A stretch of DNA of 63,744 nucleotides, filler included, from Candidatus Lindowbacteria bacterium RIFCSPLOWO2_12_FULL_62_27 (GCA_001784175.1; 3 parts of 3 records of this genome joined end to end with filler, not necessarily neighbours in it); one strand, 5' to 3'; counted from the whole stretch's first letter, positions 24,818 to 63,744 are shown. Notes: generated from the sequence alone by a model not told the origin. Program-made: numbers and translations.

Positions 24818-24862
24818 CNNNNNNNNNNNNNNNNNNNNNNNNNNNNNNNNNNNNNNNNNNNN

Positions 24863-24874
24863 TTAATTAATTAA
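24863..24874. other. Artificial contig linker (TTAATTAATTAA flanked by Ns)
   Basis: Six-frame stop linker inside an N run, identical to 49396-49407. Confidence 0.95.
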
Positions 24875-24918
24875 NNNNNNNNNNNNNNNNNNNNNNNNNN
24901 NNNNNNNNNNNNNNNNNN

Positions 24919-49088: not shown

Positions 49089-49351
49089 TTACGACGTCTT
49101 CCTCACCGCCATGTACACCGGCGTCCAGAACGAATACGCAGGCTGCGGCACGCCCGACACCCACGGCGTCACCCGCACTCGCCCCTCCGACGCGCCATCC
49201 GGAAACACCACGCCCGGCTCGAAATGCTCCACCAAAAACAACACGTCCGTCCGGTTCCCCCGCACCCATTCCGCCGACCCGCCGCTGAAGTTCTGCGCCG
49301 CCGAGTCGTTCGTGTTCCCGTACGCGTCCACCCACAACACCGTGTACACGT
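49089..49351 (-). CDS. Secreted protein, tandem paralog 4 (only the C-terminus is present)
   Basis: YTVLWVDAYG...VLFLVEHF...PQPAYSFWTPVYMAVRKTS, cut by the contig end. Confidence 0.85.
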
Positions 49352-49395
49352 NNNNNNNNNNNNNNNNNNNNNNNNNNNNNNNNNNNNNNNNNNNN

Positions 49396-49407
49396 TTAAT
49401 TAATTAA
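49396..49407. other. Artificial contig linker
   Basis: TTAATTAATTAA within an N run. Confidence 0.95.
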
Positions 49408-49452
49408 NNNNNNNNNNNNNNNNNNNNNNNNNNNNNNNNNNNNNNNNNNNNT

Positions 49453-50454
49453 TCCGGTGAATTGTGGAACACCGCTCGGAAAAATATGAACGTCTCGACC
49501 GCGTTCGGCCAGAACATCACAAAGGCGAGCGACAATTCGGTGAAGAGCGCAATCAACAACCAGAACTACCAGCTCTCGACATCGAGCGGCCGCCACACCT
49601 TCTCGACGTTCTACCGCTACCAGATCACGCAGGAAAAGACGGCGGCGACGGGCGACAGGCGAAACGCAAGCAACGGACTCACGTACGGCCTGAAAGAGAT
49701 TCCGTGGAAAGTGTTCCTGTATCCGCAGAAGCCGTTCTCGACCGACCTCACGCTGAACGCGACGCGCACGCGCGACAAATCCATCGACGCCGCGGGCCGG
49801 TCTCATCAGCGGCAGTATGGAGTCGGCGCGCAGACGAAAGTGAACGACGACGAGCGGCTCAATATCGACTACACCCTCGGCCTCACGGACAACGACAACG
49901 TCAACAGCGACATCCGGACGATGAACTGGAAGTGCGCGTACGTTGTGCAGAAGTTCATTCAGGAGGACGGCAGTTTTACGGTGTCCTATTCGTCCAACAA
50001 GACCGAGGAAGAGGTCACAACCCAGAACTACCGCGAAGCGGTCTGGCGCGCGGACGCGGCGCTGAAATGGGGCGGCCCGGCGCCGGAGGCGGTGGCGGCG
50101 AGGGACGCGGCGGAAGGCGCGGTGAAAGATATCCTGGCCGTGTACGCGGAGGAGGACATCCTGAAATTCATGCAGTTGGTCAGCCCGAGCTTCAAAGGCG
50201 ACCGCATCGCCTTCGAGAACCATGCGCGCACGACGTTCGACCGCGTGGACGCGATCAAGTACGAGGGCGTGTGGGCGTCGAGTTTTGTTCCGGGCGACAA
50301 CGTGATTGAGATCACCTTCCGATGGCAACGCCGCTGGCGCGTGTACGCGACGGGCGCCGAGGAGACGGCGACGGGCGTCGCGCTGTTCCGGCTTGAGAAG
50401 TCGGGCGACAAGTGGCTGATTCAGGAGATACGAGAGACCTCGCCGTTGTTCTAA
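49453..50454 (+). CDS. C-terminal half of an outer-membrane beta-barrel with a terminal NTF2/SnoaL-like domain (continues 62450-63744)
   Basis: Open from the contig start (SGELWNTARKN...), with beta strands then AVKDILAVYAEEDILKFMQLVSPSF...KWLIQEI...PLF. Confidence 0.8.
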   Translation, partial: SGELWNTARKNMNVSTAFGQNITKASDNSVKSAINNQNYQLSTSSGRHTFSTFYRYQITQEKTAATGDRRNASNGLTYGLKEIPWKVFLYPQKPFSTDLTLNATRTRDKSIDAAGRSHQRQYGVGAQTKVNDDERLNIDYTLGLTDNDNVNSDIRTMNWKCAYVVQKFIQEDGSFTVSYSSNKTEEEVTTQNYREAVWRADAALKWGGPAPEAVAARDAAEGAVKDILAVYAEEDILKFMQLVSPSFKGDRIAFENHARTTFDRVDAIKYEGVWASSFVPGDNVIEITFRWQRRWRVYATGAEETATGVALFRLEKSGDKWLIQEIRETSPLF

Positions 50455-51656
50455 CCGCGTTGAGTCCCGAGAAATGTTCGAATATCGACGGCCCTGACCT
50501 GACGGGTCAGGGCGATGGATTCCTCAACAGGCGCAACGATAAAAGCCGGCATGCGTCGTGGCTCCTTCGACAAGGCGATGAACTGTTCCAACGCCGCGGC
50601 CATTACCGGGCGGGGGTGTGAAGACAGTTTACATTCGACAGCGGTCAATCTGCCGTCCCGCTCGATCAGAATGTCCACTTCGTGGCCGCCGGAGGAACGC
50701 CAGAAATACAGATTCGGCCGGTATCCCTGATGCAGGTGCGTCTTCAGAATTTCCTGCACGACAAAATTCTCGTATGCGGCCCCGGCCATGGGGCCTTGAA
50801 GCAGATGTTCGGCCGTCCGGATTCCGGCCAGATGAAGCGCGAGACCCACATCGACAAAATAGAGTTTGGGACTCCGAATGATCCGCTTGCCGAAGTTTCG
50901 GTGATACGGCGGCAGCAAAAATACGATGTGGCTTGCCTCCAGAACGGATGTCCACGACCGGATGGTCGGCCCGGAAACTCCAAGTTCCTGCGAGAAATGG
51001 CTCATGTTGAATATTTGTCCGATCCGCGCGGCCGCCAGGACCATGAACCGCCGGAAGTCGCGAAGATTTCCGATATTGTGGAGTCCCCGAACGTCCCGTT
51101 CAAGATAGGTCGCGATATACCCCTCAAACCAGGCTTCGGCATCCAGACCGCGCATCACAGCCGGTCGAGGGTAGGCGCCCTTCAGACAGCGCGACAAAAA
51201 AAATGTCCGGGCCGAAGCTGGGCGTTCTTTGGTCGGCCACTCGGTTGCGTCAAAGGGCATGAGATTCAAAATGGAGACGCGGCCGGCAAGCGTTTCAGCG
51301 AGGCCGCGCATCATCTGAAACTGTTGAGAGCCGGACAGCACATATTGGCCGGGCCGTTGCCGGGCCTGGTCCACGCGGTGTTTGATGACAGGCAGAAGCG
51401 CCGGCAGATTTTGGATCTCGTCGATCACCGCCGGTGTCCCCAAATTCTCCAAAAATAATTCCGGATCCGCCTCCGCGCGGGAAAGCACGGAGGGCAGTTC
51501 CAGCGACACAGTCCGGGCCTTCCTCCCGGGCACCCGCTCAAGCATGGTCGATTTCCCTGACTGCCGGGGTCCCGTGACCGCCACCACCGGAAACTGCGCC
51601 ATCCGGCGTCTCAACGTCTCCTCCTCCGCCCTGCGCACATACCGGAATTTCGCCAT
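50451..51656 (-). CDS. AAA_14/DUF4143 family ATP-binding protein
   Basis: VTGPRQSGKST, IDEIQ, YVLSGSQ, ETLAGR, TYLERDV, SPKLYFVDVGL, FWRSSGGHEVD and AVECK. Confidence 0.92.
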   Translation of the reverse strand: MAKFRYVRRAEEETLRRRMAQFPVVAVTGPRQSGKSTMLERVPGRKARTVSLELPSVLSRAEADPELFLENLGTPAVIDEIQNLPALLPVIKHRVDQARQRPGQYVLSGSQQFQMMRGLAETLAGRVSILNLMPFDATEWPTKERPASARTFFLSRCLKGAYPRPAVMRGLDAEAWFEGYIATYLERDVRGLHNIGNLRDFRRFMVLAAARIGQIFNMSHFSQELGVSGPTIRSWTSVLEASHIVFLLPPYHRNFGKRIIRSPKLYFVDVGLALHLAGIRTAEHLLQGPMAGAAYENFVVQEILKTHLHQGYRPNLYFWRSSGGHEVDILIERDGRLTAVECKLSSHPRPVMAAALEQFIALSKEPRRMPAFIVAPVEESIALTRQVRAVDIRTFLGTQRG

Positions 51657-51766
51657 GACCAACCGATACCACATTCCCCGAGATTATGCAAGATTAAATC
51701 AACACTTTAAATTTACATATTTGGTATAGGTCAGTCTTCAATCGGAGAGATTCCGGCGTCAAGCGA

Positions 51767-51896
51767 GAACGTGTGAAAAAATGTCGCCATGTGTCATTTC
51801 GAGCGCAGCGAGAAATCTTAACTCGCTGAGATTCAAGAAAGATTTCTCGGCGCTACGCGCCTCGAAATGACAGCCGATGGATTTTTTCACACGTTC
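51767..51896. mobile_element. MITE-like element: 16-bp terminal inverted repeats enclosing a REP-like palindrome
   Basis: GAACGTGTGAAAAAAT / ATTTTTTCACACGTTC, with inner TGTCATTTCGAGCGCAGCGAGAAATCT ... AGATTTCTCG...CTCGAAATGACA. Confidence 0.7.
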
Positions 51897-51926
51897 CGAC
51901 CGATTACCCGCGCATCAAATTTGTCC

Positions 51927-51956
51927 TTGACCCCCCCCCCCCCCAGGATTTAGACT
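51927..51956 (+). promoter_or_regulatory. Sigma70-like promoter with a C14 tract in the spacer
   Basis: TTGACC (51927-51932), 18 nt, TAGACT (51951-51956). C14 lies at 51931-51944, about 90 nt upstream of ATG 52048. Confidence 0.6.
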
Positions 51957-52047
51957 CCCCTGTGATTTTCCGATTTACTGATCCTGACGTATTGCCTCCA
52001 TGGGATGTGTCGTGGTCAATACTGCTGATTGACGAAAGGGGGGTCTC

Positions 52048-55000
52048 ATGGAAATGGGCGAGGCGACGAACGGCGGCGGTTTATCCTCAGCCTGCGGGTT
52101 TCGTATACCCACACATCTCTCGCGCTCCCTCTGTGCGCCCGTCTCCCTGTTTCTGATTTTCACGTTCGCTGTTGCCTGTTGCCTGTTCCCTGTTGCCTCT
52201 CCGTCCGCCCACGCCGCCGAAATTCTGAAGGGTACGCTCGCCGATGTTCGGGGCGACGTCAAAATCCGGCGCGTGGGATCGACGCTCGAAAGCCCGGCGG
52301 CCTCCGGCGCGCGCGTCGAACCCGGCGACGCCGTCATCACCGGGGCCTCCGGTCGCGCGGCCATCCGGTTTGAGCAGGGCGACATCGAAATCGACAACGC
52401 CACGCGCCTTACGATTCTTCGGAGCATGTCGAGCCGAAGCGAGGCATTCAGTGAAATCGCGCTCTCGGACGGGTCTGTCACGGCTGTTGTTAATATGGAG
52501 AGGGAGAAAGAGCTTTGGTTTGACATCTTCACGCCCACCCAGCGTTCGCGCGGCCAATCCCACAAAAAAAATGTGACCCGTCTGACGGTCTCGCACCGCG
52601 CGGGCGGAACGACCGTCACGGACAGCGAAGTCGGCCGGTGGGAATATCAGCCTCTCATCCTGACGGACCAGCCGGCGGCGGTTCAGGCTGCGCTGACGAA
52701 CAACGCCCAAGCGTCGGCCCTGCTCAAAGATTATCTCACGACCGCCTTGAGCGACTCATCGATCCGCGCCTACGAAGTCCAGTCGAACGCGGGCGCGCCG
52801 GATATCAGCAATGTCGGGGCGCCGAAAAACACTGCGCCGCCCACGATCAGCGGCAAAATCAAAATTGGCCAGACGATTACGTACGACCCGGGCGCGTGGT
52901 CGGGCAAACCGTCGCCGACGTTCACGTACCAGTGGCTTATCGACGGAAAAGAAATCACCGGCGCGACAGCGCCTACCTACACCATTTTGGAGTCGGACGG
53001 CAATCACAAAATATCGTGCCGCGTCATTGCGACAAATTCGAATGGCTCGACCTCCGCGACGACGGCCGAGGTGGTCGTCGAGGTCGAAAAACCGTCCTCG
53101 ACCGCCGCGCCGTCGATCAGAGGAAGGGCCAGGATAGGCAAATCGGTCAAATGCGATGCGGGCGCGTGGGCCGGCGATCCGACGATCCTCTACCAGTACC
53201 AGTGGGTTCTGGACGGCAAGAACATTTTGGAGGCGACCGATCCGTTTTACATCATCGACGTGGAAGACGGCTTTCATAACCTGTCCTGCCTGGTCACCGC
53301 GTCGAACGGCGGCGGCCGGACCGCCGCGTCGTCCAAGGAGGTCCGGGTCGAAATCATCAAGCCATCGAACACCGCCCCGCCGGCCGTTGTCGGCAGTACG
53401 AAATTTGGCGGTAAACTTGGCTGTATTCCGGGCAAATGGTTCGGCGATCCGAAATTGGATTGGAAAGTGCGGTGGCTTCGGGACGGCAAGGAAATTGCCG
53501 GCGCGTCTGGCATGGCGTACACCGTGGCGGAATCGGACGGCGGCCGCAAACTTACCTGCGAATTAATTTTCTCGAACAAAGCCGGCAGCGCGTCAGCCGC
53601 CGCGCCGGAAGTCGAAATCCCCATCGACCCGCCCCTGCCGATCGTCCCGCCGCAGATCGACGGCGCCGGGCGCATCGGCGCGAAACTGACGTGCAAGCCG
53701 GGGCAGTGGGACGGTTTTCCGACGATTCAATACGCCTATCAGTGGCTCCGCAACGGCGTCGAAATTCCGGGCGCGACCGGCGAAGTCTACGCCGTCACGG
53801 AGGCCGACGGCCTTCACAAGATCTCCTGCCGCGTCACGGCCACGAACAAGGCCGGACCGGTTTCGAGTGCCACAGATGAGATCGATATCGAGGTGATCCC
53901 GCCGAAAAACACGAAGCCGCCGGTCATCGCCGGCGTTTCGAAAATCGGCGAGAACCTGACATGCGCGCCGGGCGAATGGACCGGCGATCCGACGATCACT
54001 TACGCGTATCAGTGGTTCCGGGGCGAACAGGAAATTATCGGCGCCACAGATGGCGCCGCCCCCGCCGTCAGCGCAACCATGGATGGCGGAGCCGGAAGCG
54101 GGGGCGGCGCGACAGGGCCGGCCTACAAGGTCGTTCTTGCGGACGCGCTCCATCCGCTAGTCTGCCGCGTGACGGCCGCGAACAAGGGCGGGCAGGCTTC
54201 GATGTCGGCCATGATTCAGAGCGACGTCCACCCGCCTGAAAACAAGCGGCCGCCGGCCGTCACCGGCGCTCCGAAAATCGGCGGGAACCTGACGTGCGCT
54301 CCGGGCGAATGGACCGGCGATCCCGTGATCGCATACGCGTATCAGTGGCTCCGTGGCGACCAGGAAATTTCCGGCGCGACGATGCCGGCCTACACGCTCG
54401 TCGATGAGGACGCGTTCCAGTCGCTGACCTGCCGCGTGACGGCCCGCAGCCCATTCGGGAAAATGTCGTTGACCGCCGCGCCCGTCCTTGTCGATGTCGC
54501 CAAACTTTCGAACGTCCACCGCCCGGCCGTTTCCGGCGACGCGAGCGCCGGCGCGACTCTGACCTGCTCGACCGGCAAATGGTCCGGCGATCCGATCATC
54601 AGGTACGCCCACCAGTGGCTGATGGAAGACCAGGAAATCCCGGGCGCGACCGCCGCCTCGCTCTTGCTCGGACCGGAACACTCGATCCGGAAAATCGTCT
54701 GTCGCGTCACTGCGTCGAACGCTGCCGGCCCGGTCGCGGCGGTCAGCGATCCAGTCTTGGTGAAACCCCGGTATGAAGTCAGCGGGATCGCGACCTACAA
54801 AACCCTGTTCGTCGTCGGCGACGAATCCATAGTCGACGGCGAAATTTCCGTCAACAATCCCGCCAAACTCGCCCTTCCCTTCACCGTCGATTTGACGGTG
54901 ACGGATCCCGCCGGAAATGAGATCGCGAAGGTTTCGGGCATTCCCGGCGCGGCTTCGAATCGCGCGGCGCTGGTCGTCCCGTACGGATTCAAGCTGCCGG

Positions 55001-58000
55001 CGGCGTCGAAGGCCGGCCAGTATCGGGCGCGGGCGGTTGTGAAAATCAAATGGGCCGGCAGCGTCGAGGTCATGCCGATTTCCCGCGACTTCAATCTGTT
55101 GAACCTCTCTCCCGCCTCGCCGTCGGCGGGCCGGTGGATCATCGCAGATGTCCGATCCGACGACCGCATCGCCTATCCCGGCAGGCCGACGAGCGGCAAA
55201 ATTCTGGTGGACGCGTATCCCACCCAGCTGGAAAACGCCGTCATCGTCATGACCATCTCCGGCCAGTCCGGCCGGGTGATATTTGCGCTGAACAAATCCG
55301 TGACGATCCCCGCGAGCCAATCGCCCACGCCGTTCCAATATCAATTTGACCCGCCGGCGGATGCCGAGATTGGCGTCTACACCGCGACGGCGCTCTTGAA
55401 GGACGCGCAGGGCGCGGTGATCTGCCTCTACAACTCCGGCAATCCGGTGGATATTTTCGAAATCAAACAGACAAGCTCGACGGCGGCGAAACCGCAGGTG
55501 CAACTCAAGCCCCTCATCAGCGGGACGCCCAAACTCGGCGGGAAATTGACCGCCAGTAAGGGCACGTGGACGGGCGCCGCGCCCATCGAATACAAATACC
55601 AGTGGACGAAGAATGGCGTGGACGTAGCCGGCGTGACAGACGCGGACTACGTCGTCGTAGCCGAAGACGCCCTGCAGAAAATCCGATGCCGCGTGACCGC
55701 GTCCAACGCCGGCGGGACCGTCCACGCCGTGAGCGACGAGAGGACCGTGACGGTCGAAAAGCCGTCGAACCGGACGCCGCCGGCGGTTTCCGCCGAATCG
55801 CCCACCAGCATGAAACTGACGTGCAAGATGGGCGACTGGACCGGCGATCCGACCATCGCGTTCGCGTACCAGTGGACGCGCGACGGCGTGGACATTGCCG
55901 GCGCGACTGCCGCGTCCTACGCCGCGCCGGGGTCGATGTCGGCGCACCAGTACGGTTGCCGCGTCACCGCGTCCAACCTCGGCGGCGCCGTCGCGGCCAA
56001 CAGCAACGCCGTCAATTTCGACGCGGCGAAACTCAAAGTCGCGGCCATCTTTGCCTATCGGAACGTCTTCGTCACCAAATCCACCGATGAGGTCAACGGC
56101 GAGATTACCGTCCAAAACCGCGGAACCCGCGACGTCGATTGCGCGGCCGGCCTGACGGTCACGGATCCGAATGGCGCGCAGGTGGCCAAACTGACCGGCC
56201 TGACCGGCTCGATCCCCGCCATGGACGCGGCGGGCGTGACATTCAAATTCAACCTCAATGCGCCCATCGTGATCGACGACGGCCGATCCAAGGCCGCCGC
56301 CAACGTCTTCGTCGGCCCCGCATCCGCGCCGGAACTCGCCGCAACGTCCGGACAATACATACTGTACCGGATCATCAATCCGCCGCCGCATTTCGCCGCC
56401 GGATCGCTCTTGATCGGCGATGTCTCCACGACCCTCAAGGCGATTTATCCGGGGTCGAAAGTCACGGGCAATATTTTCGCCGACGCGTATACACGCAATG
56501 AGGTGCCCGTCATTTTTGATGTGTCGGTTTTCAGCCCGTCCGGGAAAACAGTCTACACGGGTCAACTGTCCGGGCGAATTCCGTTTTTCGCCGGCATGAC
56601 TCCGTTCCCATTCGAGTTTTACTTGAAAGACGACGCTGAAATCGGGCTGTATTCCGTCAAGGCAAGCGTGAAAGTCGACGGGCCCAACAATTACTTCTTG
56701 GCCAACAAATCCTTCGCCTACAATTACGCCGACAAAGCCGACCTCTTCACCGCCCTCGAGTTTGACGCGTCCGTCAAGAAACCCGCGAACACCGGCTCTC
56801 CCGCCATCACCGGCGCGGCGCGGGTCGGCAAGACCCTGACGTGCGCCGTCGGCCAGTGGTCGGGCGATCAGCCGATGTTGTTCCATTACCAGTGGCTTCG
56901 GGACGGCGTCGTCATTCCCAATGCTCGAACCGCCGACTACGCCGTCATCGCCGCCGACGTGAACCACGACCTCTCCTGCCGGGTCTCGGCCTTGAACGCC
57001 GGCGGGAAAGCCACGGTGACGAGCGGAACGGTCAAGGTCAACCCGTCGCGGCCCGTGAACGAGGCGATGCCGGAGTTGTCCGGCGCGACAGCGGCCCGGA
57101 TCGGGTCGACGCTGTCCTGCAGTCAGGGCGACTGGACCGGCGATCCGGCGATCACGGTCGCGTACCAGTGGACGCGCGACGGCAGGGATATTCCTGGCGC
57201 GGCCGCGGCGTCGTATATTCCCGGGTGGGACGACGCCGGCAAGTCCCTCACGTGCCGGGTCACCGCGGCCAACAATGTTGGACCGACTTCCGTGTCGCCG
57301 CCGGCGATCCCCTTGAAAGTCTATAAGCCCTCGACCGCCGCGCCGCCGCAAATCACCGGCAAGGCGGCGATCAACTCCAAATTGATGTGCTCATCCGGCA
57401 TGTGGTCCGGCGATCCGGCGATCACGATCACCTATCAGTGGCTGCGCGGCGGCGTGAACATCTCCGGCGCGGCGCAGGCGTCGTACGTCGTCACGGAGGA
57501 GGACGGCCTGGAGGCCCTCACGTGCCGGGTCACCGCGACCAACAAGGCCGGCTCGACTTCGGCGACGCCGGCGGCGCTCACCGTGAACGTCGAGAAACCG
57601 TCGAACACTTCGCCCCCTCAACTTGCCGGCACGCCGGCGATCGGATCGAAACTGACGTGCAGTCCGAGAACGTGGGCCGGAGATCCGACGATCAAGTTCA
57701 CCTATCGATGGCTCGTCGACGGCAAGGCCGTATCCGGCGTCGTGTCGCCTGAATTTACTCCGACCGCAACCCATCTCGGCGGCAGTGACAACTCTCTCGT
57801 CACATGCGAGGTGACCGCGCAAAACCTCGGCGGCAGCGCGGTGGTGGAGGCGGAGCCGGTCGAAATCCTGTCGGGGTCGGCGTCGGGCGCGGACGCCACG
57901 GCCGGCGACCTGAAGGTCTACACGGCCGGCAGTGTCGTTTCCGGAAAATTCAATGTCCTGAACTCCAAGTCCGTCCAGCGCAACTTCACGGCGGCCCTGA

Positions 58001-58158
58001 CCGCCTCCGACCCGTCGGGAAAAATAGTCTTCACCAAAAATGATTTCGCAGGCCCCGCCGCCGCGAACGCCTCCGTCGCCGTCCCCTACACATTCACCCT
58101 GCCGAAGACCGCCTCCGGCGGCGTGTACAAATTTAAGGTGTCGGTGACGTGGCAATGA
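52048..58158 (+). CDS. Large exported adhesin-like protein: FecR-like N-domain + 13 Cys/Trp Ig-like repeats + other Ig-like domains
   Basis: RBS AAGGGGGG and a signal peptide ending AHA. FecR-like GTLADVRGDVKI...GDAVITG.SGRAAIRF, then the repeat P.NT.PP.I.G...G..LTC..G.W.GDP.I.Y.YQW..DG..I.GAT...Y...D....CRVTA.N..G. Confidence 0.9.
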   Translation: MEMGEATNGGGLSSACGFRIPTHLSRSLCAPVSLFLIFTFAVACCLFPVASPSAHAAEILKGTLADVRGDVKIRRVGSTLESPAASGARVEPGDAVITGASGRAAIRFEQGDIEIDNATRLTILRSMSSRSEAFSEIALSDGSVTAVVNMEREKELWFDIFTPTQRSRGQSHKKNVTRLTVSHRAGGTTVTDSEVGRWEYQPLILTDQPAAVQAALTNNAQASALLKDYLTTALSDSSIRAYEVQSNAGAPDISNVGAPKNTAPPTISGKIKIGQTITYDPGAWSGKPSPTFTYQWLIDGKEITGATAPTYTILESDGNHKISCRVIATNSNGSTSATTAEVVVEVEKPSSTAAPSIRGRARIGKSVKCDAGAWAGDPTILYQYQWVLDGKNILEATDPFYIIDVEDGFHNLSCLVTASNGGGRTAASSKEVRVEIIKPSNTAPPAVVGSTKFGGKLGCIPGKWFGDPKLDWKVRWLRDGKEIAGASGMAYTVAESDGGRKLTCELIFSNKAGSASAAAPEVEIPIDPPLPIVPPQIDGAGRIGAKLTCKPGQWDGFPTIQYAYQWLRNGVEIPGATGEVYAVTEADGLHKISCRVTATNKAGPVSSATDEIDIEVIPPKNTKPPVIAGVSKIGENLTCAPGEWTGDPTITYAYQWFRGEQEIIGATDGAAPAVSATMDGGAGSGGGATGPAYKVVLADALHPLVCRVTAANKGGQASMSAMIQSDVHPPENKRPPAVTGAPKIGGNLTCAPGEWTGDPVIAYAYQWLRGDQEISGATMPAYTLVDEDAFQSLTCRVTARSPFGKMSLTAAPVLVDVAKLSNVHRPAVSGDASAGATLTCSTGKWSGDPIIRYAHQWLMEDQEIPGATAASLLLGPEHSIRKIVCRVTASNAAGPVAAVSDPVLVKPRYEVSGIATYKTLFVVGDESIVDGEISVNNPAKLALPFTVDLTVTDPAGNEIAKVSGIPGAASNRAALVVPYGFKLPAASKAGQYRARAVVKIKWAGSVEVMPISRDFNLLNLSPASPSAGRWIIADVRSDDRIAYPGRPTSGKILVDAYPTQLENAVIVMTISGQSGRVIFALNKSVTIPASQSPTPFQYQFDPPADAEIGVYTATALLKDAQGAVICLYNSGNPVDIFEIKQTSSTAAKPQVQLKPLISGTPKLGGKLTASKGTWTGAAPIEYKYQWTKNGVDVAGVTDADYVVVAEDALQKIRCRVTASNAGGTVHAVSDERTVTVEKPSNRTPPAVSAESPTSMKLTCKMGDWTGDPTIAFAYQWTRDGVDIAGATAASYAAPGSMSAHQYGCRVTASNLGGAVAANSNAVNFDAAKLKVAAIFAYRNVFVTKSTDEVNGEITVQNRGTRDVDCAAGLTVTDPNGAQVAKLTGLTGSIPAMDAAGVTFKFNLNAPIVIDDGRSKAAANVFVGPASAPELAATSGQYILYRIINPPPHFAAGSLLIGDVSTTLKAIYPGSKVTGNIFADAYTRNEVPVIFDVSVFSPSGKTVYTGQLSGRIPFFAGMTPFPFEFYLKDDAEIGLYSVKASVKVDGPNNYFLANKSFAYNYADKADLFTALEFDASVKKPANTGSPAITGAARVGKTLTCAVGQWSGDQPMLFHYQWLRDGVVIPNARTADYAVIAADVNHDLSCRVSALNAGGKATVTSGTVKVNPSRPVNEAMPELSGATAARIGSTLSCSQGDWTGDPAITVAYQWTRDGRDIPGAAAASYIPGWDDAGKSLTCRVTAANNVGPTSVSPPAIPLKVYKPSTAAPPQITGKAAINSKLMCSSGMWSGDPAITITYQWLRGGVNISGAAQASYVVTEEDGLEALTCRVTATNKAGSTSATPAALTVNVEKPSNTSPPQLAGTPAIGSKLTCSPRTWAGDPTIKFTYRWLVDGKAVSGVVSPEFTPTATHLGGSDNSLVTCEVTAQNLGGSAVVEAEPVEILSGSASGADATAGDLKVYTAGSVVSGKFNVLNSKSVQRNFTAALTASDPSGKIVFTKNDFAGPAAANASVAVPYTFTLPKTASGGVYKFKVSVTWQ

Positions 58159-61100
58159 CGATCGGCAAAAATATGTTCCGGATCCTTTTGTCATCGGTCA
58201 TTGTTCATTGTTCATTGGTCATTTCAAGTTCCGCCGCCGATCCGACCATCCGCAATCAGGCGGAATTCTCGGCGTTCAACCTCGTGCCGCCGAAACTCCA
58301 GATTCTCTCGGCGATTTCCGACAAGGCCGAATACGATCCCAACAAGAAGGTGACGCTCGAAATCAAAATCAAAAATCCGGAGGCCGCGGACTTTGACATC
58401 GCCGTCGATGTTACGGTCACTGATCCGGCGGGGAAAGACGCCTTCAAGAAAACAGGGACGGCCGTGACGATCAAGGCAAACGGCGAGGTAACGGTCACGC
58501 AGGACTTCACGCTCTCCAAAACCGCCGCGGCGGGCGGCTACGCGCTTAAGGCGGTCGTCACATTCAACAAAAACGCCGTCGCGACAAAAGATGCCGCCAA
58601 TGTCTTCAAAGTCAAACAGCCGGCCCCGCTCACCATCTCGCCCACATCCGTGATCGTCGGCCGCGGCAAACAGCAGACGTTCACCGCCGCCGGAGCTCAG
58701 GGAAAGGCCGTCTTCTCCATGGAAAAAATCATGCCGCCCAACGTCTATGATTTCACCGAATATGGCAGTTTTACCGGAAAAGTCTTCACCGCCGGCCAGT
58801 TCGGCGGCAAGAAGGTGAAGATTATCGTCAAAGACGAACTCGACCGGACGGCCGAGGCGATCGCCGAGGTGAGCAGTGAAGTGGAGATCACGGCGCCGGG
58901 CGGAACCGAAGTCGAGCCGGGCGGAAGACTACCGCTGGGATACGCCGGCGGATCGGACGGCGAACAGGTGACGTTCTGGATCAAATCCAATAAATCCGGC
59001 GGCAAAATCGATGCCCAGAAGTACTCCTGGTACTTTGTCCCCGGCTCGGTGACCGCCGGCGTCGTCGATCGAGTCTGCGTGAAGGTGAACGGGACCTCCA
59101 AAGAGTCCTGTCTCGACGTGAAGGTCACCCCCGCCTCCATCGAGCCCAAACTGCTGAACGTCGGTCCCGGACAGAATTTCTATTTCAAGGTCGTCGGCGG
59201 AGTCTCGGGCGTTACGCGGACATTCAAGATGAATAAGGGCGCGGATCAATGCGGAACCATCAACTCGTCCGGCAATTTCACGGCGGGCGCGCTCGAGATT
59301 TCCGCGGATCAGGCCAAATCCGGAGTGGTCGAGCTTAATAACAAGTACATCAATGCGGTCGTGGCGCAGAGGGGCAATGTGGACTTCTGGAAACGAATGG
59401 CGACAAATTCTATCCTCTACGCCGATGTCGCCATCAAGTCGAATCCGCTCCCGCTGACCATCAGTCCCACGTCGGCGGACGCCACGGAGTTTGAGGAGGT
59501 CACGTTCACGTTCTCCGGCGGGAAAGGGACGAAGCGGACATTCTCGGTCGTTGAAGGGCAATCGTATCCGGCGATCAAGGTGTACAAGTTCGGCGGGAAG
59601 TATATGGCCGGGCACGTGCTCAGTCCCAAACCCGATCGTGTCCGCGTCGAGGATGATCAGGGCGGCAAGGCCGACGCCGTCATTACCGTGAAGGCGCCGG
59701 AGGAGGAGGACGAGGGATTCGATTTTGTAGGCAAGGCATGGGACCTCGGCGGGATTGTAGGCGACATCCTGGGAGTGGGCGAGTTGGTTCAACTCGCCAA
59801 CTTTGGCTACGACCTCGCCATGGGCATACAGGAGGGCAATGAGCGAGAAAATTATGTCAAACAAAAATACAGCGAATTCGGCGGCTCCATCTCTCAGGGG
59901 CCCTACAAAAAGGGCGCCATCGTCACCGCCACCAACTTGAACGACCCTTCCCAGACCGTCACCAGCGAGGTCATCGATGATAACGGGCGGTATTACATCA
60001 AATGCCCGTGGGACGGCCCGACGAAGATCGAGGCATCGGGGCCGTTCATGGACGAATTCACGGGCCGCCAAACAAAGATGCAGGGCGAAATGTCCGCCGT
60101 CGCCAACGGCGTGGACTCGAAATTGGTCGCCTGCGACGTCAACATCCCCACGACCATCGCCGCCGAGATCGTCGACCGCAAACTGGAAAAAATGAAAGAC
60201 AGCCGCAAAATGTTCGCCGCCGGCCAGATCGACCTCACCAACGAAAAAGTCGGCCAAACGATCTGCGGCAAACCCGGCGTAGACATCAGCGAGGTTGAAT
60301 TCGGCAATCCGGCCGACCCGAATTCCTCCAAAGTCACAAAATTCCACGTCGCCGTCGCCGCCCTCGCCGGCCCAAACCAGGTCGTCGACGCCGCGAAACA
60401 ATTCGCCGGCGAAATCTCAACCAACAATCCCGTCGGTTCATCCGGCGGCGTGGTCAGCGCGGCCGACCTCAAGAAAACGCTGGACAAAATCGAATCGGGC
60501 GAGCCCTTCAACGCGAAAACCTCCGCCGGCGTCATCTCTGTCCGGCCGGAAGATGTCTTCCGGCGGCTTGCGCGCGAGACCGCGCCGGCGCCTGCGCCGC
60601 CGGAACCCGCCGTCGCCGGAGTCGACGAGGCCAAAAAAATTCTGACGGCTATGGCCGACGCGCTGAATCAAAAAAATGCGCCCGGCCTCCTCGCCCCGGT
60701 CGCTCCCGATGCCGTCGTGACGATTCAGGGCAGGCGGTCCGACGCGGCGGGACTGCGGCAACTGCTCGCGGCGGCGCTTCCGCTCCTGGACAATGTCCGG
60801 TGGACTCCGGAAATCCAGTCGGCGGCGGTCGACCCGAAGACCGGCAACATCCGCGTGCGCGTGACGTCGTCGTACTCGGCCGATCTCATGGAGCCTGTCG
60901 GCGTCACGCGCGCGGCGGTGGCGGCGCCTGCCGAGGTCAAGGCATATCAGATGCGGCTCTTGGAATCGTTGCGGGCCACATCCGACGAAATCTATGAATT
61001 CAAATCAACTGCGGGCGGCCTCCAACTGGTCGAGATGGTCTCCGGTCTGCCCTTCAGCGCCGACCTGGCCGGCAAAATCGCCCGCCTCATGGCTGCGTGG

Positions 61101-62456
61101 CGGGTGAAGGTCGCGGTGTTCGGGCTGTTCGATCATCTGGAACAGAACAATCTCGACAAATTCGCGGACCTCGTCGGCGCCGATTTCGTCAACAACGACG
61201 ATAACGGATTCAAACACAACCGAACCGATTTTCTGGAGTCGGTGAAGGCCGACCTCGATCACTTGACTTCGATCGATCACACCGTCCGCGTAGATGACAT
61301 TCAGTTCAACGCAGACCTGACCTCCGCGCGGGTCCCCGTCTCATGGGACCGCCGGGCGCGAATCGCGAACAAGAATACGGAGTGGACGATCAAGGACCAG
61401 AAGACGACACTGACGTTGCGCCGCGGCCCGGAATTCGGGCTTGTCCAAGTCGAAGGCAAGCCGCTCTTCGGCAATTCCAGCCGGATTACGCGCAAGACGC
61501 TGATCGGCGCGGGCGAACTCGACGGAACGGCGATCACGCTGGCCATCGCGATTAGCGACGCGCGCGAGACGGCCACTGCGACGTCGTCCGACTTTCCGGG
61601 AGTTTCCTTGAGCAACATTGTCGGGTCCGCCGTCGGAACGTCACAAACATTTACGTATACCGGCGCCGTGCAGACCTTCACGGCGCCCGCGAACCTTAGT
61701 TTCACCATCAAGGCGTGGGGCGCCGGCGGAGGCGGGGGCGGATGGGACGTCGGTACTGGAGGCGATGGCGGCGGTGGCGCCTATGCCACAACAACGCTCG
61801 TTTTGGCCAAGGGAAGTGTTATTCAGATATATGTGGGCGGCGGCGGCGACTCGGGAGCCACTTCTGTCGCCAATACGGGCGCCGGCTCGGGCGGATTTGG
61901 GTATGGTTCGGGCGGTCGGGGCGGAAAAGCCGGAGGGACGCCCAATTCGGGATCGGGCGGCGGCGGCGGCGGATCGACGGCGGTTACGAATCAGAGTGGA
62001 ACCACATTCCACCTGGTTGCGGCCGGCGGTGGCGGCGGCGGTGGCGCCGGATTTACCAACCCGAATCGTGATGGTGGAGCGGGCGGCGTAGGCGGGCAGA
62101 ATGGAACGACGGCCAGCGGCGCCGGGGGAGCAACGGGCGCCTCCGGATCAAAAGATGGAACTGATGGCGGCGACAGGGGAGCAGCCGCTGACGGCGGCGG
62201 TGGCGGCGGCGGTGGTGGCGGATATACCGCCGGCGGCACGGGAGGCAATGCAGGCTCCGGTGACAATGGCGGCGGAGGCGGCGCCGGGGGAAACAGCACC
62301 GGCACCGTCACGGCCGGCAGCGGCAAGACGCCCGGCAATTCGACAGACGCGGATCTGACCGCCGGCCTCGCGGCAGGCGGCAGCGGTTCCACCGGAAATA
62401 CAGTCGCAACCAGAGCAACCCCCGGCGGCGCCGGGATGGTGAAAATATCATGGTAG
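58155..62456 (+). CDS. Large exported protein: Ig-like domains, two NTF2-like domains, C-terminal glycine-rich domain
   Basis: ATGA overlap and signal peptide. It contains LTISPTS repeats and ends FTYTGAVQTFTAP...KAWGAGGGGG...LVAAGGGGGG...GMVKISW. Confidence 0.88.
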   Translation: MTIGKNMFRILLSSVIVHCSLVISSSAADPTIRNQAEFSAFNLVPPKLQILSAISDKAEYDPNKKVTLEIKIKNPEAADFDIAVDVTVTDPAGKDAFKKTGTAVTIKANGEVTVTQDFTLSKTAAAGGYALKAVVTFNKNAVATKDAANVFKVKQPAPLTISPTSVIVGRGKQQTFTAAGAQGKAVFSMEKIMPPNVYDFTEYGSFTGKVFTAGQFGGKKVKIIVKDELDRTAEAIAEVSSEVEITAPGGTEVEPGGRLPLGYAGGSDGEQVTFWIKSNKSGGKIDAQKYSWYFVPGSVTAGVVDRVCVKVNGTSKESCLDVKVTPASIEPKLLNVGPGQNFYFKVVGGVSGVTRTFKMNKGADQCGTINSSGNFTAGALEISADQAKSGVVELNNKYINAVVAQRGNVDFWKRMATNSILYADVAIKSNPLPLTISPTSADATEFEEVTFTFSGGKGTKRTFSVVEGQSYPAIKVYKFGGKYMAGHVLSPKPDRVRVEDDQGGKADAVITVKAPEEEDEGFDFVGKAWDLGGIVGDILGVGELVQLANFGYDLAMGIQEGNERENYVKQKYSEFGGSISQGPYKKGAIVTATNLNDPSQTVTSEVIDDNGRYYIKCPWDGPTKIEASGPFMDEFTGRQTKMQGEMSAVANGVDSKLVACDVNIPTTIAAEIVDRKLEKMKDSRKMFAAGQIDLTNEKVGQTICGKPGVDISEVEFGNPADPNSSKVTKFHVAVAALAGPNQVVDAAKQFAGEISTNNPVGSSGGVVSAADLKKTLDKIESGEPFNAKTSAGVISVRPEDVFRRLARETAPAPAPPEPAVAGVDEAKKILTAMADALNQKNAPGLLAPVAPDAVVTIQGRRSDAAGLRQLLAAALPLLDNVRWTPEIQSAAVDPKTGNIRVRVTSSYSADLMEPVGVTRAAVAAPAEVKAYQMRLLESLRATSDEIYEFKSTAGGLQLVEMVSGLPFSADLAGKIARLMAAWRVKVAVFGLFDHLEQNNLDKFADLVGADFVNNDDNGFKHNRTDFLESVKADLDHLTSIDHTVRVDDIQFNADLTSARVPVSWDRRARIANKNTEWTIKDQKTTLTLRRGPEFGLVQVEGKPLFGNSSRITRKTLIGAGELDGTAITLAIAISDARETATATSSDFPGVSLSNIVGSAVGTSQTFTYTGAVQTFTAPANLSFTIKAWGAGGGGGGWDVGTGGDGGGGAYATTTLVLAKGSVIQIYVGGGGDSGATSVANTGAGSGGFGYGSGGRGGKAGGTPNSGSGGGGGGSTAVTNQSGTTFHLVAAGGGGGGGAGFTNPNRDGGAGGVGGQNGTTASGAGGATGASGSKDGTDGGDRGAAADGGGGGGGGGGYTAGGTGGNAGSGDNGGGGGAGGNSTGTVTAGSGKTPGNSTDADLTAGLAAGGSGSTGNTVATRATPGGAGMVKISW

Positions 62457-63744
62457 TCACCCACCCCTTCCTGCCTTCCTGCCTTCCTTATAAAAAATAT
62501 CTCTTTTTCTTTTTACTCTTCTCCATTTCCTGCTCCTTCTCCCCCAACCGGGCCGATGCCCTGTCGATCATGTACCCCGGCGAAGGCCTGAAGACCGTCG
62601 TGTCCGCGGCCGGCGAGGAAGTGAAGAAAGTATTGGACGCGGACAACGACGTGTCGCGCGCGGCAAAGGGCGCGCTGAACCTGATCGACCCGAACACATG
62701 GGCGACGCATTTCGACCAGTTCGACATGGACCTCACGCTCTCGGCCTATCACAACACCATCGACGGCAACCGCACGCGCTCGTTCCTGAAACCGGGGACG
62801 CAGACGCAGGAGCAGGCGAACATCGGCGGCAAAAAACGCTACGCGAATTTCGGCGGCGGGGAGTTCGAGTTCAAATCGTCGCTCCGCTCGACGGACGATC
62901 GGCAGGTCGACGCGGTGAAACGAACGCGCCTGCAGGGACTGTACGGCACGTTCTCGCGTCCTGACGACTACTCCCTGCGACTCGGCAACGTGAGCGGATC
63001 GTTCACGTCGTATTCGTTGTCATCGAGCGCGAATGTGGGGGCGCACCTGACGAAAGAATTGGGCGGGAAAAATATGTTTCAGGAAATGCAACTCTATTTC
63101 GGCCGGCCGACGCGGCACATCGAAGGCAGTTCGTTCACGCGGTACGTCGGAGGGATGCGCCTAGCGGACCTCGAAGTGGAGGGATGGGACAAGCTGGACA
63201 AATTCGGGCTGTCCTACGTCAAGACGAAAGACATCGTGGACAGCATCAAGGACACGAGCGCGCGCCCGGCGAACGCGGTGGAGAACCAAGTGGTGTCGGC
63301 GGACGCGAGTTTCAAATTCGGCGACGACGCCCAGGTAGCGGCCGAGTGGGCGTATTCAAAAACCGACCCGAACACGCAGTCGAATCCCGCGGACCGCCTC
63401 AAGGGGTCGGCCTACAAGGTGAACGGGTCGTATCGGGCCAAGGCGCGTTTGGGATTCGACGCGACGAGCGTGACGTCGTCATTCGAGGAAGTCGACCCGG
63501 ACTTTCGCTCGACCAGCGGCGGCGGATCGCCGGACGCGCGTCGGGCAACGCTGGGCCTGAACAGCGGGATGAAACTCCACGGCAACCTGCCGGACCTCAC
63601 GATGTCGTACAGCGGCAATTCGAGCCGGAACAACCTCGAAAACCAGATCGCGCGCCGGACGACCTCGACGGTGCACAATTTCAATTTCAGTTTCAAGCCG
63701 TACCAGAAAACGAAGGACGTTTCCGGTGAATTGTGGAACACCGC
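62450..63744 (+). CDS. N-terminal part of an outer-membrane beta-barrel (not in the ORF track; runs off the window end)
   Basis: Manually translated with no stop: MVVTHPFLPSCLPYKKYLFFFLLFSISCSFSPNRADA-LSIMY...YSLRLGNVSGSFTSYSL...AAEWAYS...FEEVDPDFRS...VSGELWNT. Confidence 0.85.
   Translation, partial: MVVTHPFLPSCLPYKKYLFFFLLFSISCSFSPNRADALSIMYPGEGLKTVVSAAGEEVKKVLDADNDVSRAAKGALNLIDPNTWATHFDQFDMDLTLSAYHNTIDGNRTRSFLKPGTQTQEQANIGGKKRYANFGGGEFEFKSSLRSTDDRQVDAVKRTRLQGLYGTFSRPDDYSLRLGNVSGSFTSYSLSSSANVGAHLTKELGGKNMFQEMQLYFGRPTRHIEGSSFTRYVGGMRLADLEVEGWDKLDKFGLSYVKTKDIVDSIKDTSARPANAVENQVVSADASFKFGDDAQVAAEWAYSKTDPNTQSNPADRLKGSAYKVNGSYRAKARLGFDATSVTSSFEEVDPDFRSTSGGGSPDARRATLGLNSGMKLHGNLPDLTMSYSGNSSRNNLENQIARRTTSTVHNFNFSFKPYQKTKDVSGELWNT

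Follow-up and report, generated by a model that had tools for sequence, protein, structure and literature searches.

The window analysed here, that is, the whole 63,744-nucleotide stretch of DNA, consists of three contigs (C18, C21, and C29) of Candidatus Lindowbacteria bacterium RIFCSPLOWO2_12_FULL_62_27 (GCA_001784175.1; hereafter G000, 94% complete), concatenated with N spacers (253 N in total; 24819-24917 and about 49351-49450), and any feature spanning either join is an artefact. The locus described below lies entirely within contig C29 (window about 49451-63744). BamA and LpxC were found in this organism, which is therefore diderm. Two overlapping genes on the + strand, gene 1 (P0001, 2036 amino acids [aa]; 52048..58158) and gene 2 (P0002, 1433 aa from ATG 58155; 58155..62456), both recognized as open reading frames (ORFs), encode giant multidomain proteins with signal peptides. 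We think it likely, as supported by conservation and modelling, that a naturally split β-sandwich couples these two separately Sec-exported proteins 1:1 in the topology of donor-strand complementation, an N-terminal extension of the gene 2 protein docking on the truncated last domain (D5) of the gene 1 protein.

The gene 1 product contains an N-terminal signal peptide, a weakly FecR/LipL45-like N-terminal region, many Ig_2-type repeats of the immunoglobulin (Ig) kind (Pfam Ig_2, E=2e-29; NCBIfam ZirU_fam, 146.7 bits), and five MG2/NPCBM_assoc/CARDB-like domains. Four of the five form two tandem pairs (residues 910-1022/1026-1142 and 1327-1444/1450-1571) and are all complete. The fifth is D5 (residues 1950-2036; 57895..58155, + strand), the putative acceptor, which is the last domain of the protein and ends ...GGVYKFKVSVTWQ at the stop codon of gene 1, at a place where an internal copy in the same protein runs on as ...GQYRARAVVKIKWAGSVEVMPISRDFNLLNLSPASPSAGRW... 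D5 is MG2/CARDB-like and has six strands, its end lying directly past strand F, according to Pfam, our own profile, AlphaFold2 (AF2), and the alignment described below. In the mature N-terminal region, residues 41-166 (window 52170-52550) showed weak likeness to two surface proteins of Leptospira, Lsa33 and LipL45 (NCBIfam E=2e-5 and 7e-4, well short of the cut-offs), and this region has a clear paralog in a separate ORF on contig C41 (114153-115145), which stands alone ahead of another giant protein.

The two genes meet in an ATGA overlap (58155..58158, + strand), which holds both the start codon of gene 2 and the stop codon of gene 1, their frames being offset by -1; G083, a genome from a different phylum, has this overlap too. 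Because the genes are in different frames and the gene 2 frame is closed by stops upstream of ATG 58155, there is no continuous ORF. Logan contigs from other sequencing runs (X3/X4, 1552 nt, covering 57400-58578; X6, 2766 nt, covering 57752-58900) span the junction with 0 differences and 0 gaps and show the same stop, while X3 and X4 look like one data set filed twice. The original prediction, which was made from the sequence and took the domain to be divided between two genes and not part of one long frame, was thus right on this point.

Gene 2 opens with a signal peptide of 27 aa (58155..58235, + strand; predicted cleavage between SSA and A), which was assigned by direct reading, with its boundary at the onset of conservation in four homologs. 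Past the signal peptide the ORF reads ADPTIRNQAEFSAFNLVPPKLQILSAISDKAEYDP, and the mature N-terminus is ADPTIRNQAEFSAFNLVPP, followed by a complete domain of the same kind as D5. The first 19 aa of the mature protein form the putative donor extension (58236..58292, + strand), as delimited by the docking model and by conservation, with a loop part (58236-58262, + strand) and a predicted G strand (58263-58286, + strand). Next comes the first complete MG2/NPCBM_assoc-like domain, of seven strands (58293..58619, + strand; Pfam and AF2), and then Big-like domains, a conserved central domain, a SnoaL-like domain, and a glycine-rich C-terminal domain. A PDB sequence search gave no match for P0002, and the glycine-rich C-terminal 285 residues (window 61596-62453) had no match in Pfam; the language-model features of these residues resemble those of ALK/LTK glycine-rich domain proteins (PF12810; score 0.95, 29/30 hits). 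Proteins with ALK/LTK-type glycine-rich domains are common in phages and Bacteroidota, and the paralog of gene 2 on contig C39 has a like ending (...KISW and stop).

D5 is genuinely truncated and lacks the F-G loop and strand G. On the Pfam MG2 profile it spans positions 7-80 of 96, vs 5-87 of 96 for the first domain of gene 2, and on our own hidden Markov model (HMM), built from five complete domain copies and 122 positions long, it aligned to positions 10-94 only. An alignment of 15 copies from G000, three same-family relatives, and paralogs (A3, made with MAFFT) showed that both D5 orthologs end at one column and that the 13 other copies (13/13) extend 17-28 residues further to a last strand of the [VIL]F.[VI] type. 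The original prediction had the last domain of the 2036-aa protein stopping short, and so it does, the sequences quoted there being present as written and all 13 other copies being longer. As to family, the MG2 score of P0001 as a whole is 33.9 bits vs a cut-off of 32.8, and that of D5 alone is 18.6 vs 32.8, while the first domain of gene 2 scored 24.9 vs 24.4 for NPCBM_assoc (PF10633) and 27.2 vs 32.8 for MG2 (PF01835). DUF11 (PF01345) had no match at E <= 10 in D5, the first domain of gene 2, or the two tandem pairs. Foldseek with the D5 model against the PDB returned generic Ig-like sandwiches only, none of them at E <= 0.001.

The family is rare. Word-index protein searches and scans of metagenome and genome collections (the patterns used in the latter were too specific) gave only the contig studied here and a contig of G002, which belongs to the same family and another genus and is a close relative (synonymous divergence, dS, 0.13-0.18; omega, the ratio dN/dS, 0.6-0.7). 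Gene 1 of G002 ends ...VSVAWQ and stop; in its gene 2 the signal peptide differs and the mature N-terminus is the same. The dN/dS of the extension against G002 is uninformative, with just 2 changes of each kind (synonymous and non-synonymous) in 19 codons. Two distant homologs of 31-32% identity, P0009 and P0010, came from an exhaustive HMMER search of 1.84 billion representatives; both have a signal peptide and then the same motif (APTIRNGAEFPVFSVEKPK and AEPSIRNQAAYTTFAVAEPK). A member of the 90% cluster of P0009 is labelled Candidatus Hydrogenedentota, and the P0009 locus itself was located in G083 among 401 genomes sampled; in the genome set used, the phylum of G000 is represented by n=4 and the different phylum of G083 by n=5. 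In G083 a 5443-aa open frame ends ...GKYKAKVSVTWK (...VSVTWK and stop) in the ATGA overlap with gene 2, and its last MG2-like domain stops at HMM position 94, earlier copies reaching 120-121. Position 94 of the 122-position HMM is thus where the terminal domain ends in G000, G002, and G083 alike, and the split is kept in every locus with both genes visible (3/3). Homologs do keep the split together with the signal peptide, a check that the original prediction had proposed, and the fourth homolog, P0010, likewise has a signal peptide and the extension. No fused form scored among proteins of 2513-5000 aa, which is weak evidence, and near-length searches gave only Ig-repeat look-alikes or the window's own protein.

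Two further observations were made in the comparison with G002. An ORF6N-domain gene (E=2e-33; L002:321-1026, contig C193) is inserted in G002 exactly after the TGA of the ATGA junction; past this insert the sequence resumes at the same CGATCG as in G000, and gene 2 starts from an ATG at the insert end. In addition, mature codons 401-500 of gene 2 (window 59436-59735) differ from G002 by 4 synonymous and 35 non-synonymous changes (omega about 3), vs a gene-wide omega of 0.7 at dS 0.18, and this excess may reflect diversifying selection or a small recombined patch.

In the comparison of G000 with G083, conservation on each side of the junction is highest in the half of the proposed joint that lies there. 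D5 is identical at 53/87 positions (61%), vs 126/307 (41%) for the preceding Ig repeats (Fisher test, p=0.0014). On the other side, the extension retains 12/20 identical residues (60%), the adjacent complete domain of gene 2 retains 28/108 (26%), and the next 245 residues of gene 2 retain 74/245 (30%); the extension compared with gene 2 residues 48-400 (102/353) gave p=0.0054 in the same test. The signal peptides, which stand between the two halves, are not conserved (6/27). Nine positions of the extension (A, P, I, R, N, A, F, P, and K) are invariant in the four-sequence alignment.

The specificity of the pairing within G000 was examined as well. When all six-frame ORFs of at least 80 aa were scanned for the two motifs, credible proteins contained one extension-like N-terminus and one end of the ...V[ST]V[TA]W[QK]-stop type; the other 8 matches to P[TS]IRN were in arginine-rich frames or in ORFs unlike real genes. 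Paralogous gene-B proteins (L024 and L022; the operon on C39 and its counterpart in G003) begin directly at strand A and are without the extension. The C39 gene A has only about 20 residues in common with D5 (E 0.016 and 0.054); its last domain is accordingly not claimed as a complete D5 homolog, and nothing is drawn from gene A here.

Structure models were then compared for the partners alone and together. AF2 with alignment A3 gave D5 alone as six strands with no G strand (predicted local distance difference test, pLDDT, 86.2), while the first 131 mature residues of gene 2 alone (pLDDT 88.5) contained a domain with its own seven strands, preceded by 20 residues modelled as coil (pLDDT averaging 48 over residues 1-10 and 66 over residues 11-20). 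For the complex, D5 with alignment A3 was combined with mature residues 1-131 of gene 2 with alignment A4. The interaction prediction score from aligned errors (ipSAE) was 0.69, 0.70, and 0.69 in three runs vs 0.00, 0.00, and 0.01 in three controls; the runs share at least 85% of their contacts, and the pLDDT of the partner is 90. The ipSAE mark was reached by 116/157 solved complexes and 2/215 mismatched pairs, counts that are rough here as our own alignments were used. In the modelled interface, donor residues 2-19 touch acceptor residues 77-90 (strand F) and 12-21 (strand A). The best-defined contact pairs (84-14, 85-13, 86-11, 88-10, and 82-16) are antiparallel and make strand F (chain-1 residues 82-92; 58120..58152, + strand) the predicted pairing edge for the donor strand, and the pairing of acceptor residues 13-15 with donor residues 14-15 puts the donor beside the strand A region (chain-1 residues 12-21; 57910..57939, + strand). 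The predicted position of the donor is that of the canonical strand G of an Ig-like sandwich, in the topology of pilus donor-strand exchange. The models therefore agree with the original prediction both in that D5 is not complete by itself, its complete sister domain having seven strands, and in that the N-terminus of the partner docks on it.

D5 is encoded with neither F-G loop nor G strand, and the place of the nick is taken by a stop codon, a start codon, and a signal peptide. If the two proteins are indeed coupled in the manner modelled, the ATGA overlap would couple translation of gene 2 to that of gene 1, favouring equal amounts of both proteins, and both would be exported via Sec to the periplasm, which would be the compartment of assembly. 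Cleavage by signal peptidase would be needed to free the N-terminus of the gene 2 protein, and its first 19 residues, predicted to be disordered until docked, would then become available as the donor, probably with no helper protein. The donor would fill in the missing loop and strand, running antiparallel to strand F with strand A at its side, to give a canonical seven-strand sandwich, and the first domain of gene 2 would end up where a tandem sister domain would sit. The product would be one elongated two-protein assembly with the variable C-terminal module of gene 2 at its far end, and its role may be adhesion or surface display. This module does vary, being of the ALK/LTK-type glycine-rich kind here and an aspartate-rich, thrombospondin-type-3-like tail in P0009/G083. 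The original prediction went further and had the two exported proteins locking head-to-tail into a fibre. The head-to-tail pair, at 1:1, is what prediction and conservation favour, and the polymer is not, there being one donor motif and one acceptor end. We offer more tentatively, and with considerable doubt, the broader proposal that this is a one-shot coupler free of chaperone and usher, an old split sandwich present in at least two candidate phyla, which plugs interchangeable tips onto giant repeat stalks after separate Sec export, and whose joint may be rendered irreversible in kinetic terms, or even covalent, by the invariant P-[TS]-I-R-N latch that precedes the strand.

Several observations weigh against the coupling. 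The extension was thought in the original prediction to resemble the missing final strand plus the following domain, and its position and its length of 19 residues (within the 17-28 of the missing tails) do fit. MAFFT also sets AEFSAFNLVP of the extension opposite RDFNLLNLSP and GQYILYRIIN, the last strands of two first-of-pair domains. The likeness of the strand itself is at chance level in two tests: D5 plus the extension scored 60.1 bits on the five-complete-domain profile, a value reached by 175/300 shuffles and 318/700 random 19-mers (a test of low power, the F-G region of the profile being poorly conserved), and in local alignment of the extension with the 13 sister tails the summed score was reached by 1043/2000 shuffles and the best score by 470/2000. 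The confident model of D5 alone means that the models do not show a need for a partner. The docking score is a model confidence and not a measurement, and structure predictors tend to complete open β-sheet edges. Only four homologs are known, and, G002 being close, the evolutionary depth comes from G083 and from P0010, for which the gene context is unseen. Finally, a route across the outer membrane was not identified, and gene 3, which follows gene 2, is not conserved. The chance-level likeness and the confident lone model would both suit an account without docking, in which D5 is a stable six-strand variant and the P-[TS]-I-R-N motif of gene 2 has another function, such as directing sorting or export once the signal peptide is cleaved, or engaging some other partner as a ligand or latch; so would the fact that the most invariant residues of the extension (P, I, R, and N) are in its loop part and not in the predicted strand. 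We nevertheless consider this account unlikely, given that the complex scored 0.69 vs 0.01 for the controls with canonical G-strand geometry, that the extension co-occurs with a truncated upstream domain in all three visible loci and is missing from the paralogous gene-B proteins, and that its length is within the range of the tails that D5 lacks.

It is also conceivable that the groove of D5 is filled by another donor, either a different protein or a second copy of gene 1, and that the gene 2 extension binds elsewhere. The complex modelling did cover a single donor candidate, the N-terminus of gene 2; against such an arrangement, no credible second donor-like motif or acceptor-like end was found in G000, and gene adjacency with the ATGA overlap is conserved in two phyla, so that we judge it improbable to a high degree. 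Least credible of all is that the split is an artefact or a product of decay, i.e., an assembly error, a frameshift, or recent pseudogenisation of one long gene. The overlap of the genes in different frames and the high omega against G002 (0.6-0.7) are what such an origin might leave behind. On the other hand, three genomes assembled independently of one another have the stop at the same position, contigs from other runs match the junction without a difference, stops close the gene 2 frame ahead of its start, a read-through product would contain an internal signal peptide, and both genes are intact at 30-60% identity across phyla.

Gene 2 is followed by gene 3 (P0003; 62450..63742, + strand), which overlaps it by 7 nt and is cut by the contig end. 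Gene 3 had no Pfam or NCBIfam match. Its language-model neighbours include an 'outer membrane beta-barrel protein family' cluster (score 0.92-0.93, low recognition), so that it is possibly an outer-membrane β-barrel, and a near-identical paralog is found after the C39 operon (L024:9870-11918). It was rejected as a core component of the system because it is not conserved at the G083 locus. Upstream of gene 1 is an AAA_14/DUF4143 ATPase gene (window 50451-51674, - strand), and C41 has a comparable AAA_14/DUF4143 gene (108341-109555) close to its paralogous giant protein. A ubiquitin-family domain (PF00240) is present in two paralogous giant proteins with Ig repeats, on C39 (L024:552-770; E=2.3e-24) and C41 (L025:1633-2400; E=8.8e-29), directly past an apparent signal peptide ending AHA or ALA, and the mature protein would begin MQIFVKT... 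A bacterial surface protein would in that case carry a ubiquitin fold that is secreted with it.

The closest parallel in known systems is the FimH-FimG tip junction of type 1 pili, in which an Ig-like acceptor without its C-terminal G strand receives as donor the N-terminal extension of the next Sec-exported subunit. The locus described here resembles it in being a heterotypic junction, and resembles chaperone-usher pili generally in its Ig-like acceptor without a C-terminal G strand (six strands in D5, 13/13 sister copies carrying the tail) and in the N-terminal extension of the next Sec-exported protein, which is antiparallel to strand F, here in the model only. Donor-strand exchange in chaperone-usher pili is treated in the available portions of several papers (PMC6615685; PMC12122975; PMC1868955). 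Unlike the single-domain pilins of these systems, the partners here are multidomain proteins of 2036 and 1433 aa with an MG2/CARDB-like fold, and whereas pilus subunits hold both groove and extension and polymerise, there is here a single junction, the own domain of gene 2 being complete. PapD-like chaperones (PF00345) and ushers (PF00577) each had 0 matches in G000, while both were detected in control genomes. With one donor, one acceptor, and neither a PapD-like chaperone nor an usher, the arrangement is therefore best read as a 1:1 coupler and not a pilus, and membership in the chaperone-usher family was rejected on the lack of PapD_N and Usher matches, the other fold family, and the absence of a polymer.

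Filaments built by donor strands with no chaperone also include TasA, Ena, and archaeal threads. Archaeal cannulae (PMC12518558) and the Tat-fimbriae of haloarchaea (PMC11821415) are of this kind as far as the accessible parts of these reports describe them. Judging from those parts, they share with the locus described here strand complementation of secreted subunits without a chaperone-usher machine, but are homopolymers of small subunits, in contrast to a single heterotypic joint of two giant proteins. Type V pili of Bacteroidota (FimA/Mfa) use a C-terminal donor, and their groove opens when an N-terminal strand of a lipoprotein precursor is removed by proteolysis. The likeness here is strand exchange between secreted subunits after a proteolytic step that frees an end, whereas in our case the donor is N-terminal, the acceptor is without its C-terminal strand, and only signal-peptide cleavage is implied; membership in the type V pili was rejected, the donor being at the opposite terminus. 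Engineered split-domain Tag/Catcher pairs have been derived from CnaB domains, according to the available text of two papers (PMC5487036; PMC5333627). In these, as outlined there, the last strand of a β-sandwich is likewise supplied in trans as a short peptide, but the pairs are man-made and closed by an isopeptide bond, while the split here is natural. Donor Asn15, beside acceptor Lys13 in the model, is the only Asn near an A-strand Lys, and it is replaced by Ser in G002 and G083 and by Ala in P0010, so that an isopeptide lock was rejected, its candidate Asn not being conserved. A full-text literature search, at the level of listings and abstracts, found no description of a split MG2/CARDB-like domain shared by two genes.

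Filaments of small pilin-like subunits, most of them put together by dedicated machines, are the known setting of donor-strand complementation. The same topological trick would here serve as a single conserved joint of two giant multidomain proteins, in another fold family and in barely studied groundwater and soil bacteria. If this is true, the loop-split domain and its extension would be a natural, genetically encoded domain/peptide pair of about 90 aa and 19 aa, possibly usable as a non-covalent Tag/Catcher, and annotation could look for such pairs by their signature, a last domain that breaks off past strand F and has ATGA, a signal peptide, and an orphan strand behind it. Splitting a domain in a loop, with a signal peptide at the nick, would then be an evolutionarily stable way of assembling proteins whose size or modularity is too great for export as one chain.

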